A DNA stretch of 64,000 bases from Escherichia coli 042 (GTDB lineage Bacteria > Pseudomonadota > Gammaproteobacteria > Enterobacterales > Enterobacteriaceae). The stretch's first letter is position 1, and each line of letters opens with the position of its first letter. The position numbers and the translations under genes are program-made. Positions 1 through 53,437 of the stretch are shown here, in pieces. The notes beneath the pieces were generated by a model. The model saw nothing but the letters and a program-made list of their open reading frames with translations. It ran no database searches and was not told the origin of the DNA. The DNA lies in the NCBI RefSeq assembly GCF_000027125.1, contig NC_017626.1; one strand, written 5' to 3'.

Positions 1-635
1 TTGCCGCTGAACAGATGTAGCATTCTTTCCAGGTCGACGAGTCGGTCAGTCTGTTGCCCGGTGATAAGATGAAACCCCCACCGGTCCCACCTCACTAGGT
101 TGTTGACGATAATTTTACTGCCAAATTTGCAGGGGCAATTGGTTTTGTAATTCCAGTTCAGTCCCCTGAAGACGTTGATCACCCCTCGCTCAAACACCTC
201 ATCCTTATTCTGGTGTAGTTGTTCAAATGTGCTCAGAATGTTCGCTTCACTGATTTCCGGAAAATTATCGTGCTCCAGTGACCGGTACCATGTATCACGG
301 GCCTGTGCATCCATTAAGGAAAGCATCCCTGAACGTTGCATCAGGTCACGCCAGATTTCGCGATCGAGATTGCGTGTGATGGCTTTCATTGCGGTTTCCG
401 GTTTCTCCATCAGCCAGCAGCCGCAGCGAAAATCCTGTTTCATGGCCCAGTCCGGGGCGGCTTTACCGCCAATACTTTCTGTCATTGCTGATATTTCAGC
501 CAGTTGCCGGATAAGTGTGTCGATTTGCAGCAGTGTACTCTTTCGTACAGCCAGAATGTGGCGGATACTGGTTGAGCAGATAACGTCCGTATGCCCGGTG
601 ACCACTTCCGGACGGGAGATTGTGATGTCTGACAT
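1..635 (-). CDS. Partial CDS (start codon at 633-635, 3' end runs off window start); DUF4942-like putative methyltransferase-like protein
   Basis: Manual reverse-complement translation from ATG at 633-635 gives MSDITISRPEVVTGHTDVICS... with no stop for >200 codons down to position 1; absent from ORF track because the stop lies outside the window. Family name from recalled gene order downstream of yeeW. Confidence 0.45.
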   Translation of the reverse strand, partial: MSDITISRPEVVTGHTDVICSTSIRHILAVRKSTLLQIDTLIRQLAEISAMTESIGGKAAPDWAMKQDFRCGCWLMEKPETAMKAITRNLDREIWRDLMQRSGMLSLMDAQARDTWYRSLEHDNFPEISEANILSTFEQLHQNKDEVFERGVINVFRGLNWNYKTNCPCKFGSKIIVNNLVRWDRWGFHLITGQQTDRLVDLERMLHLFSG

Positions 636-719
636 TATCGGTTTCCCTTTTGGTTTATAAACGAAAACGCCAGCCCTGTTCAGGCTGACGTCAGTGGAAT
701 GAAGTATGGTGAGTGATAT

Positions 720-1142
720 TTACCGGTTCTGGTGCAGAAGCTGCAGATGACGAAGAGTACGGACATCCTCCCGGGCCTGTTCGATACAGGGCAACAGTGC
801 TACCGAATCCGTTTTATCCTCATCGTTGTCAAAGATAATTCCCGATTCGCAGTCGATATTGTCCTGCAGCCACGCAATGAGGATATCCAGCGCTGTTTCA
901 GTGGTTAATGGCATCACGCTCTGTATCACTGTATTGTCTTCCGGCAACTGATGAGGGCTGGCAGAAGTCGCCGGTGTTTCGGTAGCGTCACGTTCATTCA
1001 CCACGCGGAGTGAATAACCGTTTTCAGCGACTTTGTTAATCAGTTCAGCGAGCTCAATACCATCGACGTCAACGACAATGCGCCCCATGTTCAGCGCCTG
1101 CGCATTAATGCTGTCGGCTTCCAGCGTCAGGGCCAGTTTCAT
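720..1142 (-). CDS. yeeW: YeeW-like protein, downstream partner of CbtA toxin
   Basis: 140 aa ORF; ATGA overlap with cbtA stop; position matches yeeU-yeeV-yeeW order of E. coli cryptic prophages. Confidence 0.55.
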   Translation of the reverse strand: MKLALTLEADSINAQALNMGRIVVDVDGIELAELINKVAENGYSLRVVNERDATETPATSASPHQLPEDNTVIQSVMPLTTETALDILIAWLQDNIDCESGIIFDNDEDKTDSVALLPCIEQAREDVRTLRHLQLLHQNR

Positions 1143-1516
1143 TGTTTCGCCCCCGGATGTTTACCCAGGGTAATGTTATTTACCGTTCTGTAGTTGTCGC
1201 GTGTCATCAGGCCGGTTGCCCGGCGTGCCCGGAGAATATCAATGCTGTTGATTAACTGCGACGGGGCTCCTGCGCTGAATCCCGGCTGGTCGGTACGTAC
1301 CAGCGCGTATTTTTCAACGAGAAAGTTCACCGCGTCACACAGTGAAATCCCTGCCTCAATATGCTGCTCAATCACACGTTCATCAGCGAACGGTGTGTCA
1401 TTCAGCGTGAGGCCATAGTGCTGGTCCAGCAGTCGGGTGAGCAGTGTCTGCCAGATGGTGATGGGAGACGGGCAGCCCGATGCCTCCCGTACGTGAGTGT
1501 CGGGTAATGTATTCAT
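1139..1516 (-). CDS. cbtA: CbtA/YeeV-family type IV toxin (cytoskeleton-binding toxin)
   Basis: From internal Met (MNTLPDTHV...); tail ...LLDQHYGLTLNDTPFADERVIEQHIEAGISLCDAVNFLVEKYALVRTDQPGF... matches recalled CbtA/YeeV. Confidence 0.85.
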   Translation of the reverse strand: MNTLPDTHVREASGCPSPITIWQTLLTRLLDQHYGLTLNDTPFADERVIEQHIEAGISLCDAVNFLVEKYALVRTDQPGFSAGAPSQLINSIDILRARRATGLMTRDNYRTVNNITLGKHPGAKQ

Positions 1517-1562
1517 CTTAAGTTCTCTGTAACAGGTGGTTATAAAGGGGAGATATCCGGTG

Positions 1563-1940
1563 TTATACGGTGGTTGCGGGCGCTGCCGGTGTCGGATAAA
1601 CAGCCAGATAAACGTAACCACAGGAGCCGAGGGTGTCGGCTTCGCAGGTCAGCCCTTTCGCATACAGTGTCACGGTATGCTGATGGCGGGGATTCAGTTC
1701 ACCACTGGTGAGCATGAGCTCCAGTTGTTTCATCAGCAGCGGAAAGGCCTGGTCCAGGTGGTATGCATCTGCATCGCTGAACCGGCCTCTGATACCGGCG
1801 CGGTCGGCAAGGTAATGCAACCGGTTACCCTTCTGCACCAGACGTGCCCCGAAACAGGGCGTCACGGTGCAGGGCAGTCCCCACCAGAGGCGGTCGTGAT
1901 TGTCGTCGGGAGGCGTTGTCCCGGGGAGTGTGTCTGACAC
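1563..1940 (-). CDS. cbeA: CbeA/YeeU-family antitoxin
   Basis: MSDTLPGTTPPDDNHDRLWWGLPCTVTPCFGARLVQKGNRLHYLADRAGIRG... matches recalled YeeU/CbeA; immediately upstream of toxin; start codon appears to be GTG. Confidence 0.85.
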   Translation of the reverse strand: MSDTLPGTTPPDDNHDRLWWGLPCTVTPCFGARLVQKGNRLHYLADRAGIRGRFSDADAYHLDQAFPLLMKQLELMLTSGELNPRHQHTVTLYAKGLTCEADTLGSCGYVYLAVYPTPAAPATTV

Positions 1941-2019
1941 GATAAAGTCCTCACAGAAAATCGGTTAAGAATGGTCCGGTAGTGGCGATAATTCTGCTCA
2001 TCAGAATTCCCTTCCAGAC

Positions 2020-2241
2020 TCAGTTCAGGGTGACGCTCATCAGCCGGACATACGGACCAAAACTGTCCTTACGGCGTTCTGCAAACACAGCCAGTACACC
2101 GGGAATATCCTGCACTTCACGGCCGGTATATGTATCCGTGCTACCGTGCCAGCGGTATTTACCGGTACAGAACGGAAAAAGACGGGATGCAGGATGCTGA
2201 CGGTGAATACGCATGGCTTCACCACGGGTGATGATTTTCAT
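2020..2241 (-). CDS. yeeT: YeeT-like DUF987 protein
   Basis: 73 aa, MKIITRGEAMRIHRQHPASRLFPFCTGKYRWHG... matches recalled YeeT. Confidence 0.75.
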   Translation of the reverse strand: MKIITRGEAMRIHRQHPASRLFPFCTGKYRWHGSTDTYTGREVQDIPGVLAVFAERRKDSFGPYVRLMSVTLN

Positions 2242-2327
2242 GAGAATAGTCCTCCTGAATGTGAAAGTAAGAAACAGCTGAGAAAGAGAAACTGAAGTGA
2301 TATGAAGGTGATTGTGACGGTGACGGG

Positions 2328-2804
2328 TTAAAGCAGACCGTGTTCCGCAAAGGAGAAAACCTGGCTGCCACCGACTATCAGATGGTCCGGTACCCGGATA
2401 TCAACCAGGGCCAGTGCCTGTACCAGACGCTCAGTGATAAGGCGGTCTGCCTTGCTGGGGGGGACTTCACCGGACGGGTGATTGTGCGCCAGCACCACGG
2501 CAGCGGCATTGTGGTACAGGGCGCGTTTAATCACTTCCCGGGGATGGACTTCCGTACGGTTGATGGTGCCGGTGAAGAGGGTTTCACCGGCAATCAGCTG
2601 ATTCTGGTTGTTCAGATACAGCACCCGGAACTCTTCACGCTCCAGTCCCGCCATGTTCAGAATCAGCCATTCCCGTGCCGCATGCGTGGAGGTGAAGGCC
2701 ACGCCGGGTTCATGAAGATGGCGGTCCAGGGTTTTCAGGGCCCGCTGAATGAGGCTGCGCTCGCCGGGTGTCATCTCTCCGGGCAGAAAGGAAAGTTGTT
2801 GCAT
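2328..2804 (-). CDS. yeeS: RadC-like JAB-domain protein (YeeS/YfjY family); alternative start at 2819
   Basis: HNHPSG motif (JAMM-like), LIVGG; conserved position between antirestriction gene and yeeT. Confidence 0.8.
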   Translation of the reverse strand: MQQLSFLPGEMTPGERSLIQRALKTLDRHLHEPGVAFTSTHAAREWLILNMAGLEREEFRVLYLNNQNQLIAGETLFTGTINRTEVHPREVIKRALYHNAAAVVLAHNHPSGEVPPSKADRLITERLVQALALVDIRVPDHLIVGGSQVFSFAEHGLL

Positions 2805-2819
2805 TGTGCTTCTCTCCAT

Positions 2820-3293
2820 TCAATCGATGATGCGCATAATGGCGCTGCATTCCGGATGCTGCAGGGCGTAATCCCGCAGCCGGTAATAATGGACCGTCAT
2901 GGCATAACACTCCGTACGACAGGCATGATGACTGTACGTCATCAGACAGGCGGCAATGCCGGCGGCTTCCGGGCTCATTTCAGCGCGGTTACCGTTCATG
3001 GCATTGAACAGTACCCAGTTTTCGCCATCATCGTCATCCGGTTCGGGTGCCATAAATGCCCCGCCGTTGTTCAGGGTGTACAGATTCCAGATACCACCGC
3101 AGTAGTTTTCGCAAAGACGGTCCATCCAGCCGAAGACACGGGGCTCCAGGGTCACCCACTGTGGAATGAGGCCAAAGTGCTGCGGCCAGAAACTGATACG
3201 TTGTTCATCAGGGACGAGGCTGGCAACCAGTTGTTGCAGGTCAGTCTCCGGTGCTGAGACCGAAGAGGTGGTGTTCTGAGACAATGTTTTCAT
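2820..3293 (-). CDS. Antirestriction protein (ArdB/KlcA family, YfjX-like)
   Basis: 157 aa acidic protein (PEPDDDDGENW), recalled similarity to YfjX/KlcA; stop abuts radC-like start. Confidence 0.7.
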   Translation of the reverse strand: MKTLSQNTTSSVSAPETDLQQLVASLVPDEQRISFWPQHFGLIPQWVTLEPRVFGWMDRLCENYCGGIWNLYTLNNGGAFMAPEPDDDDGENWVLFNAMNGNRAEMSPEAAGIAACLMTYSHHACRTECYAMTVHYYRLRDYALQHPECSAIMRIID

Positions 3294-38255: not shown

Positions 38256-41200
38256 ACTGGCCTGTCTGTCTGGTCGCTTTGGGCGACCGGGGATTGTATT
38301 TATTGGTGTGGCTGCGCTCTGGTGGCTGATAACCCGATATGGAGCATATCTGGGGGCAGAAACACGCCGGGATCAAATACTACTGCTGATATTGCTGAGT
38401 CTGGGGGTGCTCTTTGTCTGTTACCTGCCTGTGATGAAAAAATATGTTCAGGAACTGACATATCGACGCAGGGCCCGTAAGGAGCAAAGGTTACCTGACG
38501 ATGAAGAGCGATTGGCTCAGACGCCACCGCGCTATGTTACTGTTCAGGATATTCGTCATACTCTGCGGCGCCAGTATGGCAGATTCTGGGGACGTAAGAT
38601 ACGCATTCTGTTGATAACAGGTACCGCCTCTGAGGTTGAGTTGTTGACCCCGGGCCTGACAGAACAGTTCTGGCAGGAAGAGCAGGGGACATTGCTTCTC
38701 TGGGGAGGAGACCCCTCGCAGCCGGAAAACGCAGACTGGCTGGCTGCGTTACGCCGTCTGCGTTACCGGCCTGCTGATGGCATTGTCTGGGTAACTTCCG
38801 GACTGAGTGAAACATTATCCGCACCACTGACAGAAGATGCCCTGGACAGGGTTTCCCGTGCGGTCAGTTCATGTTGTGAGCGCCTTGGCTGGCGTCTGCC
38901 GCTGTATGTCTGGTCACTGCAGGAGAGTCCGGATGAGCGAGGGCGTATTACTCAGCCCGTGGGATGCCTTCTGCCAGCAGAATGTAGTTCTGACAAACTG
39001 AAAGCACAACTACAGGCCATGCTCCCCGGGCTTGTTGCTCAGGGGATACAGCAGATATGCTGTGCCCCTCGGTATTATTTTTTGTTGTCGCTGGCAGAGC
39101 GATTCAGACGAAATATTGATGCTGTGGTGGAGCCATTATCCGTATTACTCCGTCCATACCGTCAGTTGTTGCTGGCGGGTATTGTTTTCAGTCCGGCAAC
39201 TGTCGGCGGTGAACGAAGTGTCAGACATCGCTGGCGAATGGATAACCGCTGGGAGGCGTTGCCGGAGACAGTGCAGCAATTACCTGTCCGGCTACAGCCT
39301 TCCCGCACAGGTCATAACTGGCGCAGAAGTCTGGCCGTTATGGCGGCCATACTGATGATGGCTCAGGGAACAGGAATGGTGGTTTCCTTTCTGGCAAACC
39401 GGAGTCTGGTTGCTGAAGTACAGGAACAGATTCGTCCGGCTCAGAACCAGCAACTGTCTCCTGCAGAACGTCTGCAGGCGTTGCTGAATCTGCAGAAATC
39501 CCTGGCCCGCCTTCAGTACCGGGAGGAGCACGGGGCGCCATGGTACCTGCGGGCCGGTATGAATCAGAATGCAGACCTGCTCGCGGTCGTAATGCCCCTT
39601 TATGCACAAAATGCACATCTTTTACTGCGTGATGCCGCTGCTGCTCATCTTGAGCAGCAGCTCAGGACATTTATTCGTCTTCCTCCGGACAGCCCGCAGC
39701 GGGGGAAAATGGCAAAAGCCGCATATGACCAGCTCAGACTGTATCTGATGCTGGCGCAACCGCAACATATGGAGCCCGCCTGGTTCAGTCGTACGCTCAT
39801 GCGGGAATGGCCACAGCGTGACGGTGTGAGTGCCGTTTTCTGGCAGGCTAATGGCCCGACGTTGCTGGCGTATTATGCCTCCGGGATTATTACTCATCCT
39901 CAGTGGAAGCTGACGGCTGATGAAGAGCTGGTCAGCCAGAGCAGAACTCTGCTGCTTCGCCATCTGGGAACACAGAACAGCGATGCCATGCTGTATCAGA
40001 AAATGCTGGCACGGGTGGCACATCAGTTTGCGGATATGCGTCTGACGGATATGACCGGTGATACTGATGTCTCCCGCCTCTTTTTTACGGATGAAGTGGT
40101 TCCCGGTATGTTTACCCGCCAGGCCTGGGAAGAGGCCGTATTGCCGTCGATAGACACCGTGATTAATGAGCGTCGTGAAGAAATGGACTGGGTACTGACG
40201 GATGGCAGGCAGAAGGCACCGTCACCGGTATCGCCGGAAGCACTCAGACAGCGCCTGACAACGCGCTATTTTGCTGATTTTGGTAATGCCTGGCTGAATT
40301 TTCTGAACAGTCTGCACTTGCGTAAAGCTCAGACGCTGTCTGATGTGACAGAGCAACTGACGCTTATGGCTGATGTGCGCCAGTCCCCCCTGGTTGCTCT
40401 GATGAATACGCTGGCGGTTCAGGGGTGTACTGGCCAGCCCCGGGAAGCGGTTACTGATTCACTGGTTAAATCTGCCAGAAACCTGCTTTCACAGGAAAAA
40501 CAGCCAGTGGCAGTACCGGAAAGCCGGCTTCACGGTCCTCTGGCGACGACTTTCGGGCCGGTGCTTGCACTGATGGATAATCAGAACAACAGTGCGGATA
40601 TGCTGAATCTGCAGACATATCTGACCCGGGTGACACAGGTTCGTCTGCGTCTGCAACAGATTGCCGGCTCTTCTGACCCGCAGGCCATGATGCAGTTGCT
40701 GGCACAGACAGTATTGCAGGGGAAATCGGTTGATTTAACCGATACCCGGGATTACGGCAGCCTGACCGCTGCCGGACTCGGACAGGAGTGGTATGGCTTC
40801 GGACAGACGGTCTTTGTTCGCCCGATGGAGCAGGCGTGGCAGCAGGTTCTTACGCCCGCGGCAGAAAGTCTGAATGCCCGGTGGCGTACTGCGGTGGTGG
40901 ATGGCTGGAATAATGCATTTTCCGGGCGTTATCCGTTTAAAAATGTCAGCAGCGATGCTTCGCTTCCCCTGCTGGCAAAATACCTGAATACGGACACGGG
41001 ACGTATTGCCCGTTTCCTGCAGAATAACCTGAGTGGTGTGTTGCACAGGGAAGGCAGTCGCTGGGTACCTGATACCATTAATACCCGGGGACTGACATTC
41101 AACCCTGCGTTTCTGAAAGCCATCAATACCCTGAGTGAAATAGCGGATGTGGCGTTCACCACAGGTAACGCGGGGCTGCATTTTGAGCTGCGCCCGGGAA

Positions 41201-41637
41201 CTGCTGCCGGTGTGATGCAGACGACGCTGATAACCGATAATCAGAAACTGATTTATGTTAATCAGATGCCGGTATGGAAGCGATTTACCTGGCCGGCTGA
41301 TACGGAAGCACCTGGCGCCAGTTTAAGCTGGGTAAGCACTCAGGCCGGTACCCGTCAGTATGCAGACCTGCCGGGAAGCTGGGGGCTGATACGTCTGCTT
41401 GAGATGGCCCGACGGAAAGCCGCACCGGGCGTTGCCAGTGGCTGGAGCCTGAGCTGGCAGGCGCAGGACGGTCGTATGCTGAATTACACACTGCGAACTG
41501 AAGCGGGGGAAGGGCCGCTTGTATTGCTGAAACTCCGCAATTTTGTTCTGCCGGAAACGGTTTTCGAACTCTCCGGCACGTCAGCGTTTACAGGCAATGA
41601 CGAAGATGCCGGGGATACCGTGGAGGAGACTGACTGA
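38248..41637 (+). CDS. tssM: T6SS membrane complex subunit TssM (IcmF-like)
   Basis: 1129 aa; N-terminal TM helices, large periplasmic domain. Confidence 0.9.
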   Translation: MNKLACLSGRFGRPGIVFIGVAALWWLITRYGAYLGAETRRDQILLLILLSLGVLFVCYLPVMKKYVQELTYRRRARKEQRLPDDEERLAQTPPRYVTVQDIRHTLRRQYGRFWGRKIRILLITGTASEVELLTPGLTEQFWQEEQGTLLLWGGDPSQPENADWLAALRRLRYRPADGIVWVTSGLSETLSAPLTEDALDRVSRAVSSCCERLGWRLPLYVWSLQESPDERGRITQPVGCLLPAECSSDKLKAQLQAMLPGLVAQGIQQICCAPRYYFLLSLAERFRRNIDAVVEPLSVLLRPYRQLLLAGIVFSPATVGGERSVRHRWRMDNRWEALPETVQQLPVRLQPSRTGHNWRRSLAVMAAILMMAQGTGMVVSFLANRSLVAEVQEQIRPAQNQQLSPAERLQALLNLQKSLARLQYREEHGAPWYLRAGMNQNADLLAVVMPLYAQNAHLLLRDAAAAHLEQQLRTFIRLPPDSPQRGKMAKAAYDQLRLYLMLAQPQHMEPAWFSRTLMREWPQRDGVSAVFWQANGPTLLAYYASGIITHPQWKLTADEELVSQSRTLLLRHLGTQNSDAMLYQKMLARVAHQFADMRLTDMTGDTDVSRLFFTDEVVPGMFTRQAWEEAVLPSIDTVINERREEMDWVLTDGRQKAPSPVSPEALRQRLTTRYFADFGNAWLNFLNSLHLRKAQTLSDVTEQLTLMADVRQSPLVALMNTLAVQGCTGQPREAVTDSLVKSARNLLSQEKQPVAVPESRLHGPLATTFGPVLALMDNQNNSADMLNLQTYLTRVTQVRLRLQQIAGSSDPQAMMQLLAQTVLQGKSVDLTDTRDYGSLTAAGLGQEWYGFGQTVFVRPMEQAWQQVLTPAAESLNARWRTAVVDGWNNAFSGRYPFKNVSSDASLPLLAKYLNTDTGRIARFLQNNLSGVLHREGSRWVPDTINTRGLTFNPAFLKAINTLSEIADVAFTTGNAGLHFELRPGTAAGVMQTTLITDNQKLIYVNQMPVWKRFTWPADTEAPGASLSWVSTQAGTRQYADLPGSWGLIRLLEMARRKAAPGVASGWSLSWQAQDGRMLNYTLRTEAGEGPLVLLKLRNFVLPETVFELSGTSAFTGNDEDAGDTVEETD

Positions 41638-43235
41638 TGGCTTCCATTCATTCGCTCCTCAGTGCATGCCAGACGACACCCCGGGATGTGGCTGAACCGG
41701 CTCAGGTGCGTATTGCGCTGTGGGATAAATGGCTTGCTCCCGTGACGCCAGATAATCCCGCAGGTGATGATGCGGGGTACGATGATGATTTTCAGCAGAT
41801 GCGTGAAGAGGTCAATAAACTCTCCGGAGCCGATGCCGGAATTGTCAGCCAGCTTGCAGAAAAATTACTGACCACCAGAACCAAAGATATCCGGGTGGCG
41901 ACCTGGTATATCTGGGCCCGTCTGCGGCAGGATGGTGAAAAAGGTCTGGCCGACGGTCTGGAGCTGCTGACCGGTTTGTTGCAGCGTTTTGGAGAGCACC
42001 TGCATCCACAACGGTCACGGGCCAGGAAGGCGGCGCTGGAGTGGTTATGCAGCGCCCGCATACTGGACAGTCTGTCTCTGTATCCGGAGGTGGTGAAGGC
42101 GGATACCCTGCGCATTGCCGGGGCGCTGTGGCTGGCAGAACAGACCTTTACGGATGAGGCTTCCGCCCCGGTGCTGAACGGGTTATATCAGGCACTTGAA
42201 AATCGCCTGATGAAGGCCGGTGGTGTTGATGCAGTGGTGCCTCAGGAGGCTGCCGCGCCGGCACCGACGGTAACATCCGGCAGCGTCATGGCATTATCTG
42301 CCATCACCTCCGGACAGGAACTGCTGTCACAGGCCCGTGTTCTGGCAAAATATCTGCGTGACCAGCCTGAGGGCTGGCTGGCGGCTCATCGACTGATGAA
42401 AAGCGTCCGGCATGACACGCTGCATCAGTTACCGCCGTTATCTGCTGATGGACGGACCCGTATTGCCCCACCGGGGCCGGACCGGCGTGCGTCACTGAAA
42501 CGGTTGTATCTGCAGCAGAACTGGTTGTCACTGCTTGAACAGTGTGACGATATGTTTGCCCGGGGAGCCAGTCATCTGTGGCTGGACCTGCAGTGGTATA
42601 TTCATCAGGCGCTGTTGCAGACCGGAAAAGAAAATTATGCTGCCATTATTCAGTATGACCTGAAAGGATTGCTTCTGCGCCTGCCGGGGCTTGAGACACT
42701 GGCTTTTAACGACGGCATGCCGTTTGCCGATGACGTGACGCTGAGCTGGATACAGCAGCAGGTGATGGAGTGTGGTGAACGCTGGGCGGAAGAACCTTCT
42801 GTAACGATAACGGCAGCTCCCGGAGATAACGACATTTTATCTCTTGAGCCGGAAGCCCTGCAGATTGCGGATAATGAAGGAACAGAAGCCGCTTTAAGCT
42901 GGTTACAGGCACGTCCCGGTATTCAGTCTGACCGCAGCAACTGGCTACTGCGCCTGTTGATGGCCCGTGTTGCCGAACAGACAGGAAAAAATGACCTTGC
43001 CCTGCACCTGCTTGCGGAGCTGGATGAACGTGCAACCCGGCTGACCCTGTCACAATGGGAACCTGAACTGGTATTTGAGGTAAAAGCCCGCCGCCTGAAA
43101 CTGTTGCGTATGAAGTCCGCAAAAACTGAAAGTGACAGGGTGCGTCTGCAGCCTGATATGGAACATCTTCTTGCCGGGCTCATCGCCATTGATGCTGCCA
43201 GAGCTGCTGTGTTGTGCAATTCGGGAAGTTCATGA
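41637..43235 (+). CDS. tssA: T6SS protein TssA (ImpA N-terminal domain)
   Basis: ImpA_N pattern VTPDNPAGDDAGYDDDFQQMREEV...WYIWARL; ATGA overlap with tssM. Confidence 0.88.
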   Translation: MASIHSLLSACQTTPRDVAEPAQVRIALWDKWLAPVTPDNPAGDDAGYDDDFQQMREEVNKLSGADAGIVSQLAEKLLTTRTKDIRVATWYIWARLRQDGEKGLADGLELLTGLLQRFGEHLHPQRSRARKAALEWLCSARILDSLSLYPEVVKADTLRIAGALWLAEQTFTDEASAPVLNGLYQALENRLMKAGGVDAVVPQEAAAPAPTVTSGSVMALSAITSGQELLSQARVLAKYLRDQPEGWLAAHRLMKSVRHDTLHQLPPLSADGRTRIAPPGPDRRASLKRLYLQQNWLSLLEQCDDMFARGASHLWLDLQWYIHQALLQTGKENYAAIIQYDLKGLLLRLPGLETLAFNDGMPFADDVTLSWIQQQVMECGERWAEEPSVTITAAPGDNDILSLEPEALQIADNEGTEAALSWLQARPGIQSDRSNWLLRLLMARVAEQTGKNDLALHLLAELDERATRLTLSQWEPELVFEVKARRLKLLRMKSAKTESDRVRLQPDMEHLLAGLIAIDAARAAVLCNSGSS

Positions 43236-43236
43236 G

Positions 43237-43929
43237 ATGTCTGTCATGCATTATCTTCAGGACAAAACATTTCAGGATATAGTCAAAAATCTGGTGTTAC
43301 CGCTTCTGTCGGGCATTATTATTCCTCTTGTCAAATGGTTTGTGCAGCATTATGGCTATGCGCCGAATATCAGGAAATACAGATTTGAAAAAATTCCTGT
43401 ATCTGAAAAGGAGTCCATTCTTGCCCGTATTGACAAACTGACAAAAGAACCAGCAACGAAAAATACACTGGTAAGAATAAAATACTGTTATGAACAGATG
43501 GGGATATATCTCCCGACGTGGTGTTGTAATAAGCTGATTTGTTTTATATCCGACAGAAATATCAGCTCAGTGGATAACAGACTGCATTGTTTTCTTAAAT
43601 ATTCTTTTGTCGGTATATTTTTAGATGGCAAATTTACTGTTAATACTCGTCGTGTGCATAAAAGTTACTGGATGATAGCAGTGTTTTCGGTGTTTTCTTT
43701 ATGTGTTCAGTTTACGGGAGGGATACTTACAACCATGCCATTTCTGTCGGGGAGTAATACAGTTTTATTTATGTTATTTTCTCTCGTTTATTTTATCATG
43801 ATATTTCTGACAGTTATATTCACATGTAATCTGATTAATGAAATCCGGCTTGCCGTTCAGTTCGGGCGATTGTTTGAGGCATGGCTGAAGTCAGAGCGCG
43901 AGTCTCCGGAACAGTTAGCTTTATTCTGA
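43237..43929 (+). CDS. Low-GC hypothetical multi-pass membrane protein inserted between tssA and tssF
   Basis: 230 aa from MSVMHYL; C-terminal half strongly hydrophobic; local GC clearly below flanking T6SS genes. Confidence 0.5.
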   Translation: MSVMHYLQDKTFQDIVKNLVLPLLSGIIIPLVKWFVQHYGYAPNIRKYRFEKIPVSEKESILARIDKLTKEPATKNTLVRIKYCYEQMGIYLPTWCCNKLICFISDRNISSVDNRLHCFLKYSFVGIFLDGKFTVNTRRVHKSYWMIAVFSVFSLCVQFTGGILTTMPFLSGSNTVLFMLFSLVYFIMIFLTVIFTCNLINEIRLAVQFGRLFEAWLKSERESPEQLALF

Positions 43930-43936
43930 GAAGATA

Positions 43937-45700
43937 ATGGACGATTTAACCCTGCGTTATTTTGACGCTGAAATGCGTTATCTGCGTGAAGCCGGAAAGG
44001 CGTTTGCACAGGCTCATCCCGATCGGGCGGCGATGCTGGATCTCGATAAAGCGGGTACGCCTGATCCCTGCGTGGAACGCCTGTTTGAAGGTTTCGCCTT
44101 TTCCATGGGACGACTGCGCCAGAAAATCGACGATGATTTGCCGGAGCTTACTGAAAGTCTGGTCAGTATGCTCTGGCCTCATTACCTGCGTACTATCCCG
44201 TCCCTGTCGGTGGTGGCACTGACTCCCCGGTTATCCGTCATGAAAATGGCTGAAACCGTACCAGCCGGACTGGAAGTGACTTCCCGCCCTGTTGGCCCCG
44301 GAAATACAGTCTGTCGTTACCGTACCACCCGGGCCATACCACTGAATCCACTGGCAGTGGAGAAGGTTGTTATGACGACGGAGCCGGACGGGCGTTCAGT
44401 GTTGAAAATAGGTTTTGCCTGCAGTGAACTGGCTGACTGGTCTCAGGTCGATTTGCATCGTCTGAGCCTGTATCTGGCAGCAGAAGCCCCGGTCAGCAGC
44501 ACCCTTCATCTGATGATGACAAAGCGTCTGGCTGCGCTGTATCTGAGGCTGCCGGGAAATGATGAGCGGATCCGCATTGACGGATGGTTTTCACCCGGTG
44601 GTTTTGCAGAAGAAGATCGGCTGTGGCCGAAAGGTGACAGTGCTTTCAGTGGGTATCAGTTATTGCTGGAATATTTCACCTTTCGGGAAAAGTTTATGTT
44701 TGTTCATCTGAACGGACTGGAGAATGTTTCTCTGCCGGCAGGTATTTCCGGATTCGATCTTGAGGTGGTGCTGAGTCAGCCCTGGCCAGCAGATTTACCT
44801 GTGACAGACGATGCCCTGTGTCTGCATTGTGTGCCGGTGATTAACCTTTTTACGCTTGAAGCCGATCCACTCATCATCAATGGGCTGGAGAGCGAATACC
44901 TGCTGCGCCCGAAGCGTCTGCAGGATGGGTATACGGAGATATATTCAGTGGATGCGGTGACGGGCTCCGGGCGGACCGGCAGTGCAGAGTACGTGCCTTT
45001 TACCAGCTTCCGTCACCGTGGGGGAATGCTGCGCCATGATGCACCCGAACGTTATTATCATACCCGGGTGAAGCGGGGTGTCACGGGGATGTATGACACA
45101 TGGCTTATCCTTGGCGGTCAGCGGTGGGAGGCGGATCGGATGCCGGAGCGGGAAACGCTTTCATTACGTATTACAGGTACCAATGGTCAGCTTCCCCGTC
45201 GTGCGTTGCAGAGTACGCTGCTTGATCGGTGTGAACAGGTACTGCAGGCCCCGGTCAGTGTACGTAATCTTTGTAAACCCACGCTACCGGTTTATCCGCC
45301 GACAGAAGATCGTTTTCACTGGCGGGTGATGAGTCATCTGGGGACAGGATTTCTTAACATGCTGAGCAGTGCGGAAGTGCTGCGTGGCACGCTGGCGCTT
45401 TATAACTGGCGGGACGATGAACTTAATCACCGTCGGCTTGATGCCATTCTGGCTGTACAGCATCATCGTATTCAGCGTTTTGAAAAGGGTTTTCTGCTCC
45501 GGGGGCTTGATGTGGAGGTAACTCTTGATGGCAACGGGTTTGCCGGAGAGGGAGATATTCACCTGTTTGGCGAAATGCTCAACCGTTTCCTGGCCCTGTA
45601 CGCCGATATGAATCAGTTCAATCAGCTCACACTGATTGTTCAGCCTGAAGGAAAATGCATCCGGTGGAAAGAAAATCACAATCCGCGCCTGCCCGGTTAA
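43937..45700 (+). CDS. tssF: T6SS baseplate subunit TssF
   Basis: 587 aa; N-terminus MDDLTLRYFDAEMRYLREAGKAFAQAHPD typical of TssF. Confidence 0.9.
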   Translation: MDDLTLRYFDAEMRYLREAGKAFAQAHPDRAAMLDLDKAGTPDPCVERLFEGFAFSMGRLRQKIDDDLPELTESLVSMLWPHYLRTIPSLSVVALTPRLSVMKMAETVPAGLEVTSRPVGPGNTVCRYRTTRAIPLNPLAVEKVVMTTEPDGRSVLKIGFACSELADWSQVDLHRLSLYLAAEAPVSSTLHLMMTKRLAALYLRLPGNDERIRIDGWFSPGGFAEEDRLWPKGDSAFSGYQLLLEYFTFREKFMFVHLNGLENVSLPAGISGFDLEVVLSQPWPADLPVTDDALCLHCVPVINLFTLEADPLIINGLESEYLLRPKRLQDGYTEIYSVDAVTGSGRTGSAEYVPFTSFRHRGGMLRHDAPERYYHTRVKRGVTGMYDTWLILGGQRWEADRMPERETLSLRITGTNGQLPRRALQSTLLDRCEQVLQAPVSVRNLCKPTLPVYPPTEDRFHWRVMSHLGTGFLNMLSSAEVLRGTLALYNWRDDELNHRRLDAILAVQHHRIQRFEKGFLLRGLDVEVTLDGNGFAGEGDIHLFGEMLNRFLALYADMNQFNQLTLIVQPEGKCIRWKENHNPRLPG

Positions 45701-46755
45701 TTACCCGTTACCGGAAACAGCTTCCGTATATTAATTTTTACCGCTTCTGTCAGTTGCTGGAACAAAGCCAGCCAGACCAGCCTCCCATTGGCAGTGGCTG
45801 GCAGGCCCGTCAGGAAGCGGTTCGCTTTTGTCCATACCCGGGAATGGGGTTTCCTGCGAGTGAAATAAAAGACGCTGTAATTCCTGAAGAATCCCATCTG
45901 CCACCCATTGTACATGTGACGTTTATGGGACTTTACGGGGTCACGTCTCCGTTGCCGGCACACTATATCAGTGATATTGCACAGCAGCGGGAAGGCCATG
46001 AGGCCGCAGCGGATTTTCTCGATATATTCAGTCATCGTCTGATCACCCAGTATTACCGTATCTGGCGTAAATATTCGTACCCGGCCACCTTTGAGGCGGG
46101 AGGACAGGATAAAACATCCCAGTATCTGCTCGGTCTGGCCAGACTGGGGATCCCCGGATGTGCACAGAATATTGCCACGCCGGTATCGCGTTTTCTGGCG
46201 TTATTGCCCCTGATGTTGTTACCCGGAAGAACAGCTGAAGGGCTGACATCACTGGTAACGCTGCTGGCTCCCGGAACACAGGCCCGTGTCTGGCATCATG
46301 ACCGACGACGGATCCCGCTGAAAACACCGCTGACCATGCGTGTTCATCACCCGGTCAGTCTGAAGAGTCGCCCGGTGATGGGCGATCATGCCACGGATGT
46401 GAACGGACAGGTGTTATTACAGCTTTCAACACAGACGGGCAGCGAGGTACAGGGCTGGTTACCAGGCGGGCATCTGTATTCTGATTTGTTGGCGTTGTTG
46501 CATGTTTATCTGGGAAGCCGTCTGGATGTACGTCTGCAACTTTGTGTTGAGCGTTCACTGTTACCGGATGCCCGGCTCAGTTGCCGACCGGCAGCCGGTA
46601 GTCCGCAACTGGGGCGCACGGCAGTAATGAGAACACAGGCAAAGATAGCGACTTCAGCGGCACGCGTCATGACCATCAGTCTGGGGCGTTATCAGCGGGT
46701 TCAGGAACATTATCAACGTAAGGAGACTCAGGAAAATGGCGATTATCGCTGGTAA
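45655..46755 (+). CDS. tssG: T6SS baseplate subunit TssG
   Basis: 366 aa, overlaps tssF end; conserved position. Confidence 0.85.
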   Translation: MHPVERKSQSAPARLITRYRKQLPYINFYRFCQLLEQSQPDQPPIGSGWQARQEAVRFCPYPGMGFPASEIKDAVIPEESHLPPIVHVTFMGLYGVTSPLPAHYISDIAQQREGHEAAADFLDIFSHRLITQYYRIWRKYSYPATFEAGGQDKTSQYLLGLARLGIPGCAQNIATPVSRFLALLPLMLLPGRTAEGLTSLVTLLAPGTQARVWHHDRRRIPLKTPLTMRVHHPVSLKSRPVMGDHATDVNGQVLLQLSTQTGSEVQGWLPGGHLYSDLLALLHVYLGSRLDVRLQLCVERSLLPDARLSCRPAAGSPQLGRTAVMRTQAKIATSAARVMTISLGRYQRVQEHYQRKETQENGDYRW

Positions 46756-47272
46756 GGCTGGTTACGGTCTGATTATTGCGTTGTTTTCCCTGTCGTTATC
46801 AGGATGCGGTCTGACGCAAAGAGTGGCAGACGGTACGGTATCTGCCACGAAATCCCTGTTTTACCGACAGATAAAAACACTTCACCTGGATATTCGTGCC
46901 AGGGAGGCCATTAACACCAGTGCTGCCGGTATTCCCCTGTCGGTTGTGGTGCGGATTTATCAGCTTAAAGACAACCGGAGTTTTGACAGTGCGGATTATC
47001 AGGCGCTTTTTACAGGGGACAATGAAATTCTGGCAGGCGATATCATTGCACAGAAAGATGTATGGCTGCAGCCAGGTGGTTCAGTAGCCGTGGATATGCC
47101 TCTGGATGATGCGGCGAAATTTACCGGTGTGGCAGCAATGTTTCTGGAGCCTGACCAGAAGAAAAATACCTGGCGGGTGGTGCTGGGCCGGGATGAGCTT
47201 GAGCCGGACACGCCCCGTCTTATTGAAGTATCCGGTAACACCCTGACCCTGTTACCGGTGAAGGATAAATAG
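46736..47272 (+). CDS. tssJ: T6SS outer-membrane lipoprotein TssJ
   Basis: Lipobox LSLSGCG; 178 aa; AGGAG RBS. Confidence 0.85.
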   Translation: MAIIAGKAGYGLIIALFSLSLSGCGLTQRVADGTVSATKSLFYRQIKTLHLDIRAREAINTSAAGIPLSVVVRIYQLKDNRSFDSADYQALFTGDNEILAGDIIAQKDVWLQPGGSVAVDMPLDDAAKFTGVAAMFLEPDQKKNTWRVVLGRDELEPDTPRLIEVSGNTLTLLPVKDK

Positions 47273-47274
47273 TG

Positions 47275-47706
47275 ATGCCGCGTCCTTCCCTTTATGAAAT
47301 TCTCTATGGCAATTTCACTGGCGGGCTGGAGTTAAACCAGGTCGGTGAGGAAGAGCAGGTTATTCTTTCGGTGCTCGATAACATGCAGCGTATTCTGAAT
47401 ACCCGTGCCGGAAGCCTTAAGCATCTTCCGGATTATGGTCTGCCGGATATAACAACCATTCTGCAGGGAATGCCGGGGACGGCGCATCAACTGATGCGCG
47501 TGCTTTCAGACGTTCTGCTGAAGTATGAGCCACGTATTAAGCGCGTCGACGTGACGATGCAGGAACAGACTCAGCCTGGTGAGTTGCATTATGTCATTGA
47601 TGCAGAACTTAAAGATGCCGGGCTGGTTCGTTACGGAACAACATTTATACCGGAGGGCAGGGTGTTGTTGCGCCATCTGAAACAGCAGCGCTACGTGCAG
47701 ACGTGA
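47275..47706 (+). CDS. tssE: T6SS baseplate protein TssE (gp25-like)
   Basis: MPRPSLYEILYGNF...; gp25-like size (143 aa); follows tssJ. Confidence 0.88.
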   Translation: MPRPSLYEILYGNFTGGLELNQVGEEEQVILSVLDNMQRILNTRAGSLKHLPDYGLPDITTILQGMPGTAHQLMRVLSDVLLKYEPRIKRVDVTMQEQTQPGELHYVIDAELKDAGLVRYGTTFIPEGRVLLRHLKQQRYVQT

Positions 47707-47862
47707 GCCGGAGCAGGGAGGGCAGAACAGAAATAAATAAACAGCGATGGATATATGTCAGGTGTGAATGTGACATTATTCTGGCTTATGACAACGCTGG
47801 CTGAATGTTTCATCATCCTGATAACTCGGGCATATCAGCAATAACAATGTATGAGTTTTAAA

Positions 47863-48264
47863 ATGAAGAAAATTATCTTTTTTCTGTTCGTGGGGCTTTT
47901 ATTTTCGGTTCAGGCAGATGCTGCGCGGGGAAGAAAACCCTGCTCGGGTGCTAAAGGTGGTATTTCACACTGTACGTCAGACGGACGTTTTGTCTGCAAT
48001 GACGGAAGTCTGAGTCAGTCGAAGCGCCTTTGTTCTGGTTATGGCGTGGCACCCGGCAAACGTCAGGTGAAATCACCGGTCACCACGAAGCCGGTTCAGA
48101 AGGAAAAATCAGCGGCTGTCCGGAAGGTGTCACAACCGTCGGTGGCTGAGAAAAATGAGGCTGTGCCGGTCACTGAACCCCGCAACCCTACCTGTGCGCC
48201 GCTTTATATGGCCAGCAAACCCGGATTTACGCATCTGCCCATTTGTTCCGGTAATCAGTATTAA
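47863..48264 (+). CDS. Predicted secreted Cys-containing protein
   Basis: Signal peptide MKKIIFFLFVGLLFSVQADA; Cys pairs; low-GC. Confidence 0.45.
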   Translation: MKKIIFFLFVGLLFSVQADAARGRKPCSGAKGGISHCTSDGRFVCNDGSLSQSKRLCSGYGVAPGKRQVKSPVTTKPVQKEKSAAVRKVSQPSVAEKNEAVPVTEPRNPTCAPLYMASKPGFTHLPICSGNQY

Positions 48265-48419
48265 TCTGACACTGAAATAGCAGAGGAATCTGTGCTCAGC
48301 CTGCAGTTAATCCTGTAGTGGCTGGCATCATAAAGCCGGACAACCTTCCGGGTATAAATATTTCCGGAGGGCGTTAATCAAAGATATTCAGTTACTGAGA
48401 AGGAAAATAAAGGAAAGTC

Positions 48420-49664
48420 ATGGCAGGAGGAAAAAAAGATGATAATGCAGCGGGATTTGTCCTGATTTTAGTTTGCGTTATTCTCTGGGGGATTTATGTG
48501 GCGGTCAGGGCGCTGATAAATCTTAATGAGCGCTTTATTGATGCAGTATCGAATCCGGCAGGTATTATTGGTTTGTTTTTTGGTTTGCTTACTGTATTTG
48601 CAATTTTACTTCGTTTTTTTATTTACCGGAGACTCAGAAAGAAAACAGCAGCCTTTGAGCAGGCCGTTTCAGAGCTGGTTCAGAGAGAGCGGGGTTTTAA
48701 TGAAACTGTCAATGCCGCGATAGCCCGGGGAATACGACAGGAAAAGGAGCAACTGGCCAGACGTCGTGAGGAATTTCATACCGCCAGACAGAAGGCCAGC
48801 CGTGCAATGCAACGGATTGTTGATTCCGCCTGGAAATTTAAGGCGAAGACTCTGCTGGCTGGTGTAACGATTAATAACTGGCAAAGCAAATATGACCAGC
48901 TTCGTAAGGAAAGAGAGGCTTACGCTGCTGTCAGTGAGAAAATAGCCTTTCTTAACCTGGAAGATAATTCTGACCGGGAGAGTATCAGGCAACAGTTTCT
49001 GGACAAAGTGGCATTGCTGGAAAAAGCGCAGGAAGAGAAGGAATATCAGGCAGAGCTTAAGCGTCAGATGCGTGAAGAAAAAGAGCGTCAGGATGAACCT
49101 GAACGGCGCCAGCGGGAAGCGGAAGAGGAAGAACGGCGTCTTGCTGAGCAGCAGAAACTGATTGAGGAGGCGCTGCGCGCAGCAGAAGGGGCTCACAGGG
49201 AGGAGTTAGAGAAACAACGCCTGGAGCTGGAACAGAAAATTCAGGAAGCGCATGCGCAGTATGAACGTGCTAAATCCATGGCTCAGCTTACGAAACAGGG
49301 GCATGTTTATATCATTTCGAATATTGGTTCGTTTGGTGAGGATGTCTTTAAAATTGGCATGACCCGACGGCTGGAACCCATGGACAGGGTCAAAGAGTTA
49401 AGTGGTGCTTCTGTTCCGTTTGATTTTGATGTTCACGCCATGATTTCCTGTGATGATGCGCCTGCGCTGGAAAAAACACTTCATGACAGTCTGGAAAAAT
49501 ACCGCATTAACAGGATTAACCTGCGTAAAGAATTTTTCCGCGTGAAGCTTGAGAAAATCATTAATGAAGTGGAGCGTCACCACGGGCAGGTGGAATATGT
49601 GGCTGACCCGGCGGCGCTGCAGTACCTGCAGAGTCTGGAATACGCGGAAAATGAAGCTGCCTGA
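48420..49664 (+). CDS. Membrane-anchored coiled-coil protein with C-terminal T5orf172/GIY-YIG-like nuclease domain (DUF4041-type architecture)
   Basis: Two N-terminal TM helices; long charged (E/R/K/Q) coiled-coil; C-terminus GHVYIISN...FKIGMT... resembles GIY-x10-YIG. Confidence 0.65.
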   Translation: MAGGKKDDNAAGFVLILVCVILWGIYVAVRALINLNERFIDAVSNPAGIIGLFFGLLTVFAILLRFFIYRRLRKKTAAFEQAVSELVQRERGFNETVNAAIARGIRQEKEQLARRREEFHTARQKASRAMQRIVDSAWKFKAKTLLAGVTINNWQSKYDQLRKEREAYAAVSEKIAFLNLEDNSDRESIRQQFLDKVALLEKAQEEKEYQAELKRQMREEKERQDEPERRQREAEEEERRLAEQQKLIEEALRAAEGAHREELEKQRLELEQKIQEAHAQYERAKSMAQLTKQGHVYIISNIGSFGEDVFKIGMTRRLEPMDRVKELSGASVPFDFDVHAMISCDDAPALEKTLHDSLEKYRINRINLRKEFFRVKLEKIINEVERHHGQVEYVADPAALQYLQSLEYAENEAA

Positions 49665-49857
49665 CAGTCAGTGTTCTGATTTTACCCCGGCCGGATATAA
49701 CAGAAGGGATATCTGCAGATACCCTGCAGCATGGTTCACAGTATTCTGGTCATGTTAATGATTCTGTTTTTTATTTCTGAATAAAGCGATACCCACGATA
49801 TAACATCCGTGGATGTCGGTGGTGATTATTTTTTTGTTCACAGATTAAGGTGCGTTT

Positions 49858-51645
<1,788 letters not shown>

Positions 51646-51706
51646 TACCGGACCATTTCTTTATTCTGGTTTTCCACTATATTTTATTATCAGGTGTATT
51701 TTATTT

Positions 51707-52015
51707 ATGATGAATCCATTATTCAGTGACATTCAGATGCGTCTTTTTCATCTTAATCATTCCCCGTATTCCTGGTACTGGAATGTCAGATTCAGACCCC
51801 AGGAAGCCGTATATATTGGCAACGATACCTGTCATATCACCATTACCTGTAATCAGTCAGGTTTTCATTTAACCAGGGACGGACAACGGCTGTTCACTGA
51901 GCGTTATATCAGAAACCTTAATGAGCTGTTGCCGGTTCTGAAACGGCGGTGGGATGTGACACCGGCAATTATCCGCGCGGTGGAATACCTTTCCCGGGTA
52001 CCGGTATCACACTGA
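51707..52015 (+). CDS. Hypothetical small protein upstream of tagA-like gene (start uncertain)
   Basis: ORF 51605..52015; internal Met chosen because upstream part overlaps helicase 3' end. Confidence 0.3.
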   Translation: MMNPLFSDIQMRLFHLNHSPYSWYWNVRFRPQEAVYIGNDTCHITITCNQSGFHLTRDGQRLFTERYIRNLNELLPVLKRRWDVTPAIIRAVEYLSRVPVSH

Positions 52016-52069
52016 TGTTCTTTTCGTCACTGTTAATCATGATTTAATACAGCAACACCGAATCTGCCG

Positions 52070-53437
52070 ATGACTTCTGAAGTGAAACTGAAAACCGGTG
52101 GTGACCCCCGGTCATTACCGGATTATGCTGCCCTGCGCGATGAAATCAGCAAACTGACTCACCCGGCACGCCCGGATGTGGACTGGCGTTACGTGGAAAC
52201 ACTCTGCCTGCGTCTGTATGAACACAATGGCGTGGAATTACAGACGGCATCCTGGTACACCATCGCCCGGATGCATACAACAGGGTTAAGTGGTCTGAAT
52301 GAAGGGCTGGCTCTGATTGTGGCGCTGACCCGGCATCACTGGTCAGTGATGTGGCCGCTGAATACCCACGCCCGGCTGGAAATTATTACCGGTCTGTTCA
52401 ACCATCTGCAAAAAACGCTTCGGGCCATGCCTCCGGACGACCGTGACAACCTGCCCCTGCTGTATCAGACCGAAACATTCCTGAAGGCACTGAGTGACAC
52501 ACTGGCCCGGCACGAACTTAAACAGAGCAGTAAAGTGGCTTTACCGGAAGCCATGGTGAAGGGATATATCACCCGCCTGGAGAACCAGCCTGTGCAGGGT
52601 GAAGTATCGTCTCCGGTAACCCTTCCGGCGCAGGCACTCCGGTCTGATGCTCCGGACGTACAGGAACATCAGACCCTGCCGCACTCCCGTCTGGTGTATG
52701 TTGTTTCTGAAACAAAAGCAGAGAGCGGAAAAGAAAACACACATTCCCTTCAGAAATCCCCGCCCACGTTTCTGAAACCGTTTGTAACTGGTGTCTGTGC
52801 GGCATTGCTGGCGGTCAGCGTGGCCATTCCGGGATGGCAGTTTCTGACACAGCCATCACCGGCGGAGCAGCAACTCAGGGCGTTGCTGACACCACCACCG
52901 GATGTGCTTTCAGCAGGCCAGATGACACAGCTCAGCAGAACACCTTCACTGCTAAATCATGCGTCAGAGTGGATAACCCTTTCCGGTCAGCAGATAACAC
53001 GACTGGCAGAACTACCCCCGGCATACAACCTGCAACGCAGTGCGCAGCTGCTGCAGCAACTGAGGGTACTTTTTCCCGACAATCCCCGTGTTCAGGAAAT
53101 GGTGGATAACTGGCAGAAGAGTGTAAGGAGTCGTGCGCTCCCGGAAGAGGCGATGGCGGGCTGGAACGAAGGCATGACCCGCTTACAGCAGCTGGCTGAG
53201 CGCCTGAACCGTCTGGATGAGCAGCGGGGAAAATACATGACGGTCAGTGAACTGAAAACGGAGGTGTTTGGCATCATGCAGGCTTTTAACCGGCATATCC
53301 CGGCAGAAGAGCAGTTACGTCGCTATGATGAAGTTCGTAACCAGAATAGCAGTGAACAGCAGCAAAAAAAGGTGGAAAATGGTCTTGTCGAGCTGGTGAG
53401 TCGTTACTGGGTTTTGACGCAAGGGGACATGAAGTGA
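52070..53437 (+). CDS. ImpA_N-domain T6SS accessory protein (TagA/VasL-like)
   Basis: N-terminal DPRSLPDYAALRDEISKL...DWRYVETLCLRLYEHNGVELQTASWY parallels TssA ImpA_N; central TM helix. Confidence 0.6.
   Translation: MTSEVKLKTGGDPRSLPDYAALRDEISKLTHPARPDVDWRYVETLCLRLYEHNGVELQTASWYTIARMHTTGLSGLNEGLALIVALTRHHWSVMWPLNTHARLEIITGLFNHLQKTLRAMPPDDRDNLPLLYQTETFLKALSDTLARHELKQSSKVALPEAMVKGYITRLENQPVQGEVSSPVTLPAQALRSDAPDVQEHQTLPHSRLVYVVSETKAESGKENTHSLQKSPPTFLKPFVTGVCAALLAVSVAIPGWQFLTQPSPAEQQLRALLTPPPDVLSAGQMTQLSRTPSLLNHASEWITLSGQQITRLAELPPAYNLQRSAQLLQQLRVLFPDNPRVQEMVDNWQKSVRSRALPEEAMAGWNEGMTRLQQLAERLNRLDEQRGKYMTVSELKTEVFGIMQAFNRHIPAEEQLRRYDEVRNQNSSEQQQKKVENGLVELVSRYWVLTQGDMK

Follow-up and report, generated by a model that had tools for sequence, protein, structure and literature searches.

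The tagA gene of a Sci-1 type VI secretion cluster in Escherichia coli 042 and the defence-like cassette in the tssE-tagA slot

[quoted passage not shown] In enteroaggregative E. coli (EAEC), TagA binds TssA, is located distally on the sheath once this is fully extended and recruits TssA to the cell envelope (PMC6450956). When TagA is missing, the sheaths keep elongating and slide along the membrane with no static extended phase, and non-canonical contractions become fewer (PMC6450956). According to the passage of PMC6730261 that cites Santin et al. (2018), a tagA mutant retains about 12% of antibacterial activity. The pheU-type island of EAEC has been described as well (PMC6730261). The TagA protein, its role and the island are already known; what may be new in the present analysis is a recurrent cassette slot beside the gene, a native 101-aa partner ORF and a systematic mis-annotation of tagA in RefSeq.

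The window, that is the whole stretch of 64,000 nucleotides of E. coli 042 that was analysed (contig NC_017626.1), is an E. coli island of the pheU type with both Sci-1 and Sci-2, and E. coli HH35 has the same region with 100% identity. The Sci-1/T6SS-1 cluster is complete, with tssB, tssC, tssK, tssL, tagL, hcp, tssH, vgrG, tle1-EAEC, two tli1 genes, a PAAR gene, tssM, tssA, tssF, tssG, tssJ and tssE. A second T6SS cluster (aaiC/Sci-2) begins at about 61 kb. The genes tssM and tssA overlap by one base, and both this overlap and the length of TssA match those of the EAEC T6SS-1 (PMC6450956). From the stop of tssE to the start of tagA the distance is 4,363 bp, in keeping with the 4.4 kb given in a preliminary description of this DNA, and four ORFs lie within this interval (Table 1).

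Table 1. Coordinates of the features discussed in the text (positions in the window).
Feature	Position	Strand	Details
TssA (ImpA_N + VasJ, class A)	41637-43235		532 aa
tssE, last Sci-1 core gene	47272-47706	+	TIGR03357 E 4e-26; Pfam GPW_gp25; PGAP tssE
Block missing from empty-site alleles	47690-51706	.	4,017 bp; blastn breakpoints
Small protein, signal-peptide-like N-terminus	47851-48264	+	137 aa; first cassette gene; PGAP start 47863
PD-Lambda-1-like GIY-YIG/T5orf172 protein	48420-49664	+	414 aa; Pfam MUG113, T5orf172; PADLOC
NERD nuclease-like + UvrD-type helicase	49858-51645	+	Pfam NERD, UvrD-helicase, UvrD_C; PADLOC C3a187
Conserved 101-aa ORF, native to the tssE-tagA junction	51710-52015	+	Outside the insert
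tagA, type VI accessory protein	52070-53437	+	455 aa, ATG start; 100% identical in EAEC 55989
ImpA_N domain of TagA, aa 8-109	52091-52396	+	Pfam PF06812, E 2.4e-17
Single hydrophobic helix of TagA, aa 235-260	52772-52849	+	Kyte-Doolittle + AlphaFold2 (AF2)
VasL domain of TagA, aa 306-449, all-helical	52985-53416	+	Pfam PF12486, E 1e-37
Kiwa-like pair, KwaA (53652-54212) + KwaB (54215-55045)	53652-55045	+	PADLOC
IbrA/IbrB-like pair (PAPS-reductase/DUF3440 + ParB-like)	55086-56947	+	Pfam, PGAP names

The ORF at 52070-53437 is the sole gene of the island in which an ImpA_N domain is combined with a VasL domain. Both domains score well above their Pfam cutoffs (63.6 bits vs 26.9 for ImpA_N, 129.8 bits vs 27.3 for VasL), which bears out the ImpA N-terminal pattern, as in TssA, and the TagA/VasL-type C-terminus that the preliminary description had attributed to this protein. 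The TssA equivalog model TIGR03362 of NCBIfam matches aa 9-203 only, at 80.9 vs a cutoff of 230.1, and TIGR03363 reaches 37.7 vs a cutoff of 160.85; since the TIGR03362 match is restricted to the N-terminal part and lies below the cutoff, the C-terminus of the protein is not TssA-like. The core component TssA, considered as an identity for this ORF, was set aside for want of a full-length, above-cutoff match to either model. Where a central transmembrane helix was proposed earlier, there is a hydrophobic segment with a Kyte-Doolittle 19-residue mean of 1.99 at aa 235-253 and a predicted helix in the AlphaFold2 model, and the position of this hydrophobic region is conserved across the family alignment.

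The AlphaFold2 model of TagA, computed with a 24-sequence family alignment as input (mean pLDDT 79), consists of an N-terminal helical domain that extends to about aa 171 (pLDDT >90), a disordered linker of about 55 residues (aa 177-233), the hydrophobic helix and a helical C-terminal domain (aa 264-452), in which the pLDDT of VasL is about 80-90. When the model is compared with the PDB by Foldseek, the top match is 6hs5, the N-terminal domain of a Burkholderia TssA (probability 1.00), which is also recovered from the sequence by phmmer; for the fold of the VasL domain the same Foldseek comparison with the PDB returned generic TPR or 14-3-3-like helical matches only, with E > 0.1. TagA is colinear from end to end with 23 homologues of 26-82% identity, all of about 450 aa. 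An ImpA_N domain followed by a hydrophobic helix and VasL, without the C-terminus of TssA, fits the published definition of tagA (PMC6745524). The complete Sci-1 cluster 4.4 kb upstream provides the T6SS linkage, and it is very likely that the ORF is tagA, an accessory gene of Sci-1 (T6SS-1), with the block before it long settled in a fixed slot. It can be equated with the published EAEC TagA by its 100% identity to the protein of strain 55989, by the identity of the island and by its being the only ImpA_N+VasL gene there; we take its locus tag to be EC042_4550.

TagA is described as a cytosolic protein, tightly associated with the membrane, whereas one transmembrane helix would place ImpA_N and VasL across the membrane from each other. 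By analogy with the EAEC protein, the TagA of this island would bind, from its tight association with the membrane, the TssA that caps the sheath distally, where it grows; polymerisation would thereby be stopped at the far side of the cell, and the sheath would be held extended until contraction. Its loss would lower the efficiency of killing, not abolish killing.

In RefSeq, the PGAP annotation splits tagA into three pseudogene fragments, namely ImpA_N (C-terminus missing), ShlB/POTRA and VasL (N-terminus missing), and does so throughout the E. coli genomes examined, even where the sequence is 100% identical to the window (HH35, 55989). Taken at its word, the annotation makes the ORF a decayed, non-functional remnant, and in many E. 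coli genomes without a neighbouring T6SS core tagA is indeed truly frameshifted (L003, L007) or truncated (L004, L010). The tagA of the window is nevertheless an uninterrupted frame of 455 aa, colinear with family members of 24 lineages, and its dN/dS is 0.2-0.3 (0.20-0.31 vs 0.15-0.27 for tssE, in comparisons with E. coli, with Salmonella and with a relative further away). An unbroken ORF of 454-463 aa is also present in the E. coli loci L002, L005, L006 and L098, where PGAP fragments it nonetheless. The exact TagA protein is present on at least 1000 contigs. As for the ShlB/POTRA label on the stretch of the hydrophobic helix, it derives from a chimeric reference protein, WP_001345400.1 (strain 97-3250), which carries ShlB-type POTRA domains at aa 65-180 and whose aa 286-339 are 78% identical to aa 216-269 of TagA. 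That tagA is a dead remnant is therefore hardly credible, and the three-pseudogene annotation is, as judged from sequence comparison, an artefact laid over a gene that is intact and under selection. Automated T6SS surveys will miss TagA as a consequence of this mis-annotation.

Between tssE and tagA, three of the four ORFs belong to the block that is missing from the empty-site alleles described below. The product of the first one matches NCBIfam PRK10040 below the cutoff and has homologues with 61-65% identity in the same slot of other genera. The second product is matched by the PD-Lambda-1 model of PADLOC with an E of 5e-88, over aa 201-412 only (model positions 264-476 of 491), the N-terminal half having no PD-Lambda-1 match in PADLOC; 414-aa homologues of this protein, with 76-79% identity, are encoded upstream of tagA in five other loci. 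The third is matched by the PADLOC candidate C3a187, “NERD+UvrD”, with an E of 9e-140. PGAP names this last product a 3'-5' exonuclease and places its start at 49900. With these HMM matches, the earlier description of the intervening genes as defence-like is sustained, and the cassette genes may be called phage-defence-like, with a PD-Lambda-1 match that covers half of the protein.

A different view of the same three genes would make them cargo linked to the T6SS, that is a nuclease effector with accessory or immunity proteins, or regulators, rather than passengers with a role in phage defence. Across genera they turn up in just this tssE-tagA slot, they share the orientation of the cluster, the GIY-YIG fold is one of nucleases, and the limitation of the PD-Lambda-1 match to the C-terminal half is in line with such a role too. 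By contrast, the defence models match strongly (5e-88 and 9e-140), Pfam gave no PAAR, MIX, Rhs or VgrG-adaptor domain, a block of NERD/UvrD, small ORF and tagA is kept in E. coli devoid of the T6SS core, and the neighbourhood is that of a typical defence island (Kiwa, Qat and others). A T6SS cargo is thus quite improbable, and the genes are treated here as defence-like.

The fourth ORF has another standing. It is found in the empty-site alleles L098 and L009 with 85-92% aa identity, and its dN/dS of 0.08 corresponds to strong purifying selection. It has no family match in Pfam or NCBIfam, and neither tblastn nor blastp found a homologue in the distant TagA loci, where the small genes upstream are unrelated to it. 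Its conservation beside tagA where the block is missing shows that it belongs to the junction itself and lies outside the insert.

The empty sites themselves were found in two species. In E. coli 04-00955, the Sci-1 core of which is 98.1% identical over positions 40001-47689 of the window, 84 bp stand in place of the 4,017 bp, and the 101-aa ORF and tagA come next (92.5% identity); in Salmonella enterica (L009, with a TagA that is 82% identical) 95 bp are found in the same place. Compared directly, the two empty alleles form one alignment across the junction, at 82.6% over 2,334 bp, and they share the tssE C-terminus QQQFVD..., whereas the tssE of the window ends in QQRYVQT. Since the junction is colinear and the tssE C-terminus is shared, the empty alleles represent one inherited state and not independent deletions. 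The identity of the window to the empty allele drops from 99% to 93% towards the junction. At the ends of the 4,017-bp block no terminal inverted repeats, target-site duplication or recombinase gene were found.

Two further observations concern the composition of the block. An imperfect direct repeat of 16 nt at 49765 and 51695 flanks the NERD/UvrD module and could be due to chance. The GC content was also considered as a marker of foreignness and discarded as uninformative, the insert (48.7%) being only 3 points below the core (51.7%).

The preliminary description had proposed that defence genes were inserted into an originally contiguous T6SS locus, and had suggested a synteny comparison. 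The two empty alleles agree with this proposal, as does the finding that tssE lies at most 800 bp from tagA in 61 of 79 species loci. Its picture of a tagA separated from the core by the cassette holds for the 4,017-bp block and needs amending in three respects: the 101-aa ORF next to tagA is native, tagA is followed by defence genes too, and the cassette recurs in this slot elsewhere.

The order with the cassette is also present in other genera (L036, L055, L044, L053 and others), and it may be asked whether it is the older one in E. coli and Salmonella, the contiguous alleles having arisen by deletion with nothing ever “inserted”. In L008, a divergent relative (TagA 70%), the small ORF and tagA are already preceded directly by NERD/UvrD; six genera with eroded remnants of the cassette indicate that loss does occur; the GC content of the cassette is near that of the core, and the cassette is carried by about 57 of the 65 genomes of E. 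coli in which this Sci-1 3' end is present. The two empty alleles, however, have a homologous junction and the same tssE C-terminus, where independent deletions would differ, and most Enterobacterales, together with all sampled distant TagA loci, are contiguous or hold a different small gene. Deletion from an ancestral cassette order is therefore unlikely, and gain of the block in a contiguous locus is preferred. The NERD/UvrD module of L008 does imply that both alleles are old within the lineage of E. coli and Salmonella, and there the cassette allele may match the empty allele in age.

To see the slot in a wider frame, 79 further TagA loci across Enterobacterales were surveyed, with one genome per species. 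The gap between tssE and tagA is at most 260 bp in 39 of these 79 loci and 261-800 bp in another 22, 18 of which carry a conserved 156-aa ORF. Cassette homologues or remnants occupy the slot in 13/79 loci, other content in 1/79, and in 4/79 tssE is absent nearby. In distant TagA homologues from metagenomes, tssE or tssA is directly upstream. An Enterobacteriaceae MAG (L036) has all the cassette genes, arranged as in the window. The small protein and the PD-Lambda-1-like gene occur together in Salmonella enterica subsp. arizonae, Pluralibacter and an Enterobacteriaceae strain, and the PD-Lambda-1-like gene occurs alone in Serratia inhibens; eroded remnants of the cassette are seen in Cedecea, Pantoea, Rosenbergiella, Dryocola and Serratia.

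In all comparisons, identity to the window follows the same ranking, from the PD-Lambda-1-like protein (about 78%) through TssE (about 75%) and the small protein (about 63%) to TagA (about 43%). The arizonae locus (L055) is a mosaic, in which a window-type TssF (81%) is joined to a 3' module like that of L036 (TssE 91%, PD-Lambda-1-like protein 94%, TagA 80%). The constant ranking and this mosaic fit an old tssE-cassette-tagA module that is swapped as a whole by homologous recombination. Rather than a recent one-off, the cassette is, from the comparison of these loci, an old and recurrent polymorphism in the slot. In the shared and commonest state, the 3' end of the cluster reads tssE-(small ORF)-tagA. 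The block between tssE and the small ORF would be an old occupant of a fixed slot, which probably spreads or disappears through homologous recombination in the tssE 3' end and tagA on either side and not by transposition.

Downstream of tagA, the analysis enters a second group of defence genes. KwaA (E 3e-10) and KwaB (E 2.4e-12) are adjacent and co-oriented, as expected of a Kiwa pair, in the PADLOC results; Pfam DUF4868 was not reported for KwaB at E <= 0.01, and the support for Kiwa is moderate. With a GC content of 34.6% the pair is clearly foreign. Other E. coli have Qat, an ATP-dependent nuclease or a large AAA protein in place of Kiwa downstream of tagA, while the IbrA/IbrB-like pair that follows is conserved as the block on the right-hand side of the island and is colinear in L003 and L005. 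tagA would thus form the left border of a second, more variable defence region, occupied here by Kiwa; the gene lies within a defence island that has a T6SS cluster on either side.

The distribution of tagA within the species was followed in 5,426 complete E. coli genomes. This Sci-1 3' end is present in 65 of them and the arrangement with the cassette in 57. Some tagA sequence is found in far more, 1,507 genomes, of which 436 hold at least 80% of tagA, so that tagA sequence is kept in 28% of complete E. coli genomes vs about 1% for the Sci-1 core. In genomes without the T6SS core, tagA, often together with NERD/UvrD and the small ORF, stands beside CDI toxin arrays or a grp island.

Regulatory signals were sought around the gene. 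In a Fur-box scan with the 19-mer consensus on both strands, the site at 52026, upstream of tagA, scores 13/19, equal to the site at 20789 near the sci-1 promoter; as 25 such sites are found vs about 11 expected by chance, a Fur box before tagA was dismissed as uninformative. Between 47600 and 53700, promoter-like sites for sigma-70 are fewer than in shuffled sequences, with none before tagA, and a terminator scan of the same stretch gave none that is convincing between the helicase gene and tagA. In most Sci-1 E. coli tagA is 4 kb away from the operon, which raises the question of its co-expression with the Fur-controlled cluster.

Taken together, these data allow a broader proposal, which we put forward tentatively and as somewhat short of an even chance: in Enterobacterales the slot between tssE and tagA is conserved, being empty or filled by the 156-aa ORF or by the cassette, in which NERD-UvrD is present only at times, the 3' module with the cassette recombines between T6SS clusters that otherwise differ, and tagA with its flanks survives the loss of the T6SS and anchors a defence island. 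If true, this would be a specific and previously undescribed coupling of a T6SS accessory gene with anti-phage cargo; a search of the accessible literature for defence genes at tssE-tagA found nothing relevant. The tssE-tagA junction and the 3' flank of tagA, as slots for defence genes across genera, could also serve as landmarks in the mining of defence systems.

Among described systems, the nearest is the Sci-1 TagA of EAEC (Szwedziak and Pilhofer, 2019, PMC6450956), from which no difference was found, the comparison being made through strain 55989. The island is of the same type, with a Sci-1 cluster bearing Tle1/Tli1-EAEC and then Sci-2/aai, and the gene has the same ImpA_N domain, hydrophobic region and VasL domain, with 100% nucleotide identity to 55989. 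The TagA/VasL protein of V. cholerae (VCA0121; class B TssA-like; PMC6745524, PMC7545191) likewise has ImpA_N followed by a hydrophobic region, is localised at the membrane and, like the EAEC protein, limits or terminates sheath assembly via TssA. It is distant in sequence and, unlike the gene of the window, is encoded directly inside the cluster; as to the phenotype, the published emphasis is on its preventing excessive sheath assembly, and for the EAEC protein on clamping the extended sheath. With TssA, TagA has the N-terminal ImpA_N fold in common; the C-terminal domain of TssA is VasJ/oligomerising, whereas TagA lacks it and bears a hydrophobic helix and VasL instead.

The locus as a whole is comparable to the defence islands at recombination hotspots, in which variable cargo recognisable by HMMs is held between conserved flanks, here tssE|tagA and tagA|ibrAB, and in which presence or absence is polymorphic among strains without genes for mobility, as is the case here. 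It differs from them in that its flanks are T6SS genes and not housekeeping genes, and in that what fills the upstream slot is essentially a single recurrent cassette or the 156-aa ORF, not a diversity of systems.

The 3' flank of the T6SS accessory gene tagA is occupied in the window by a Kiwa-like KwaA/KwaB pair with a GC content of 34.6%, while in other E. coli the same position carries Qat, an ATP-dependent nuclease or a gene of 2.7 kb for an AAA protein, and this flank is therefore a defence hotspot with variable content. Beyond this variable region, on its right side, lies a block that is 94-96% conserved in other E. coli and serves as the region's right-hand anchor.

Features around tagA and at related loci (window coordinates unless a locus is named)
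Feature	Location	Strand	Remark
Imperfect direct repeat, left copy	49765-49780		flanks NERD/UvrD module
Loss of homology, several E. coli loci	49767-49856		coincides with left repeat copy
Imperfect direct repeat, right copy	51695-51710		flanks NERD/UvrD module
101-aa ORF	51710-52015	+	directly upstream of tagA
Middle tagA "pseudogene" feature	52739-52870		labelled ShlB/POTRA by RefSeq/PGAP
Kiwa-like KwaA/KwaB pair	53652-55045	+	directly 3' of tagA
IbrA-like PAPS-reductase/DUF3440 protein, IbrB-like ParB-domain protein, PerC-family regulator, two hypothetical genes	55086-58349	+	conserved block
Locus of chimeric protein	L010 6116-7162		tied to ShlB/POTRA label
~156-aa ORF	L024, L030, L033, L035, L042, L043 and ~12 further loci		between tssE and tagA

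On the other side of tagA, the 101-aa ORF has no match in Pfam or NCBIfam; it is kept in E. coli, in Salmonella (85% amino acid identity) and in one more distant relative, is retained also by alleles without the defence cassette, and has a dN/dS of about 0.08. Its product is possibly a so far unrecognised partner of TagA. A 2.2-kb contig binned in a "Collinsella sp." MAG (JAIJJM010000548.1) bears NERD/UvrD, the small ORF and tagA with 93% amino acid identity to E. coli, and is almost certainly E. coli contamination. The 16-nt repeat bracketing the NERD/UvrD module (TGTTTTTTATTTCTGA and TGTATTTTATTTATGA) could be a module junction, or could have arisen by chance.

The tagA ORF is intact, yet it is split into three "pseudogene" features in the RefSeq/PGAP annotation. 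The middle piece is labelled as it is because the label derives from WP_001345400.1, a chimeric reference protein of 348 aa in which POTRA domains are followed by a segment matching TagA residues 216-269.

In three tagA-bearing loci of E. coli M1 and E62 (L002, L006, L007) the Sci-1 core is absent. Here the block of cassette, small ORF and tagA directly follows CDI (cdiA) orphan toxin/immunity arrays, and in one case the first two cassette genes have given way to a pseudogene of tssE together with an Ail/Lom gene; tagA remains intact in L002 and L006 despite the missing core. In about 18 of the 79 Enterobacterales species, the slot between tssE and tagA is filled by a conserved ORF of ~156 aa (MSVKSQFLKKLQ...ADIAEFRLRM...), which has no Pfam match and appears to be an alternative occupant to the PD-Lambda-1-like cassette.
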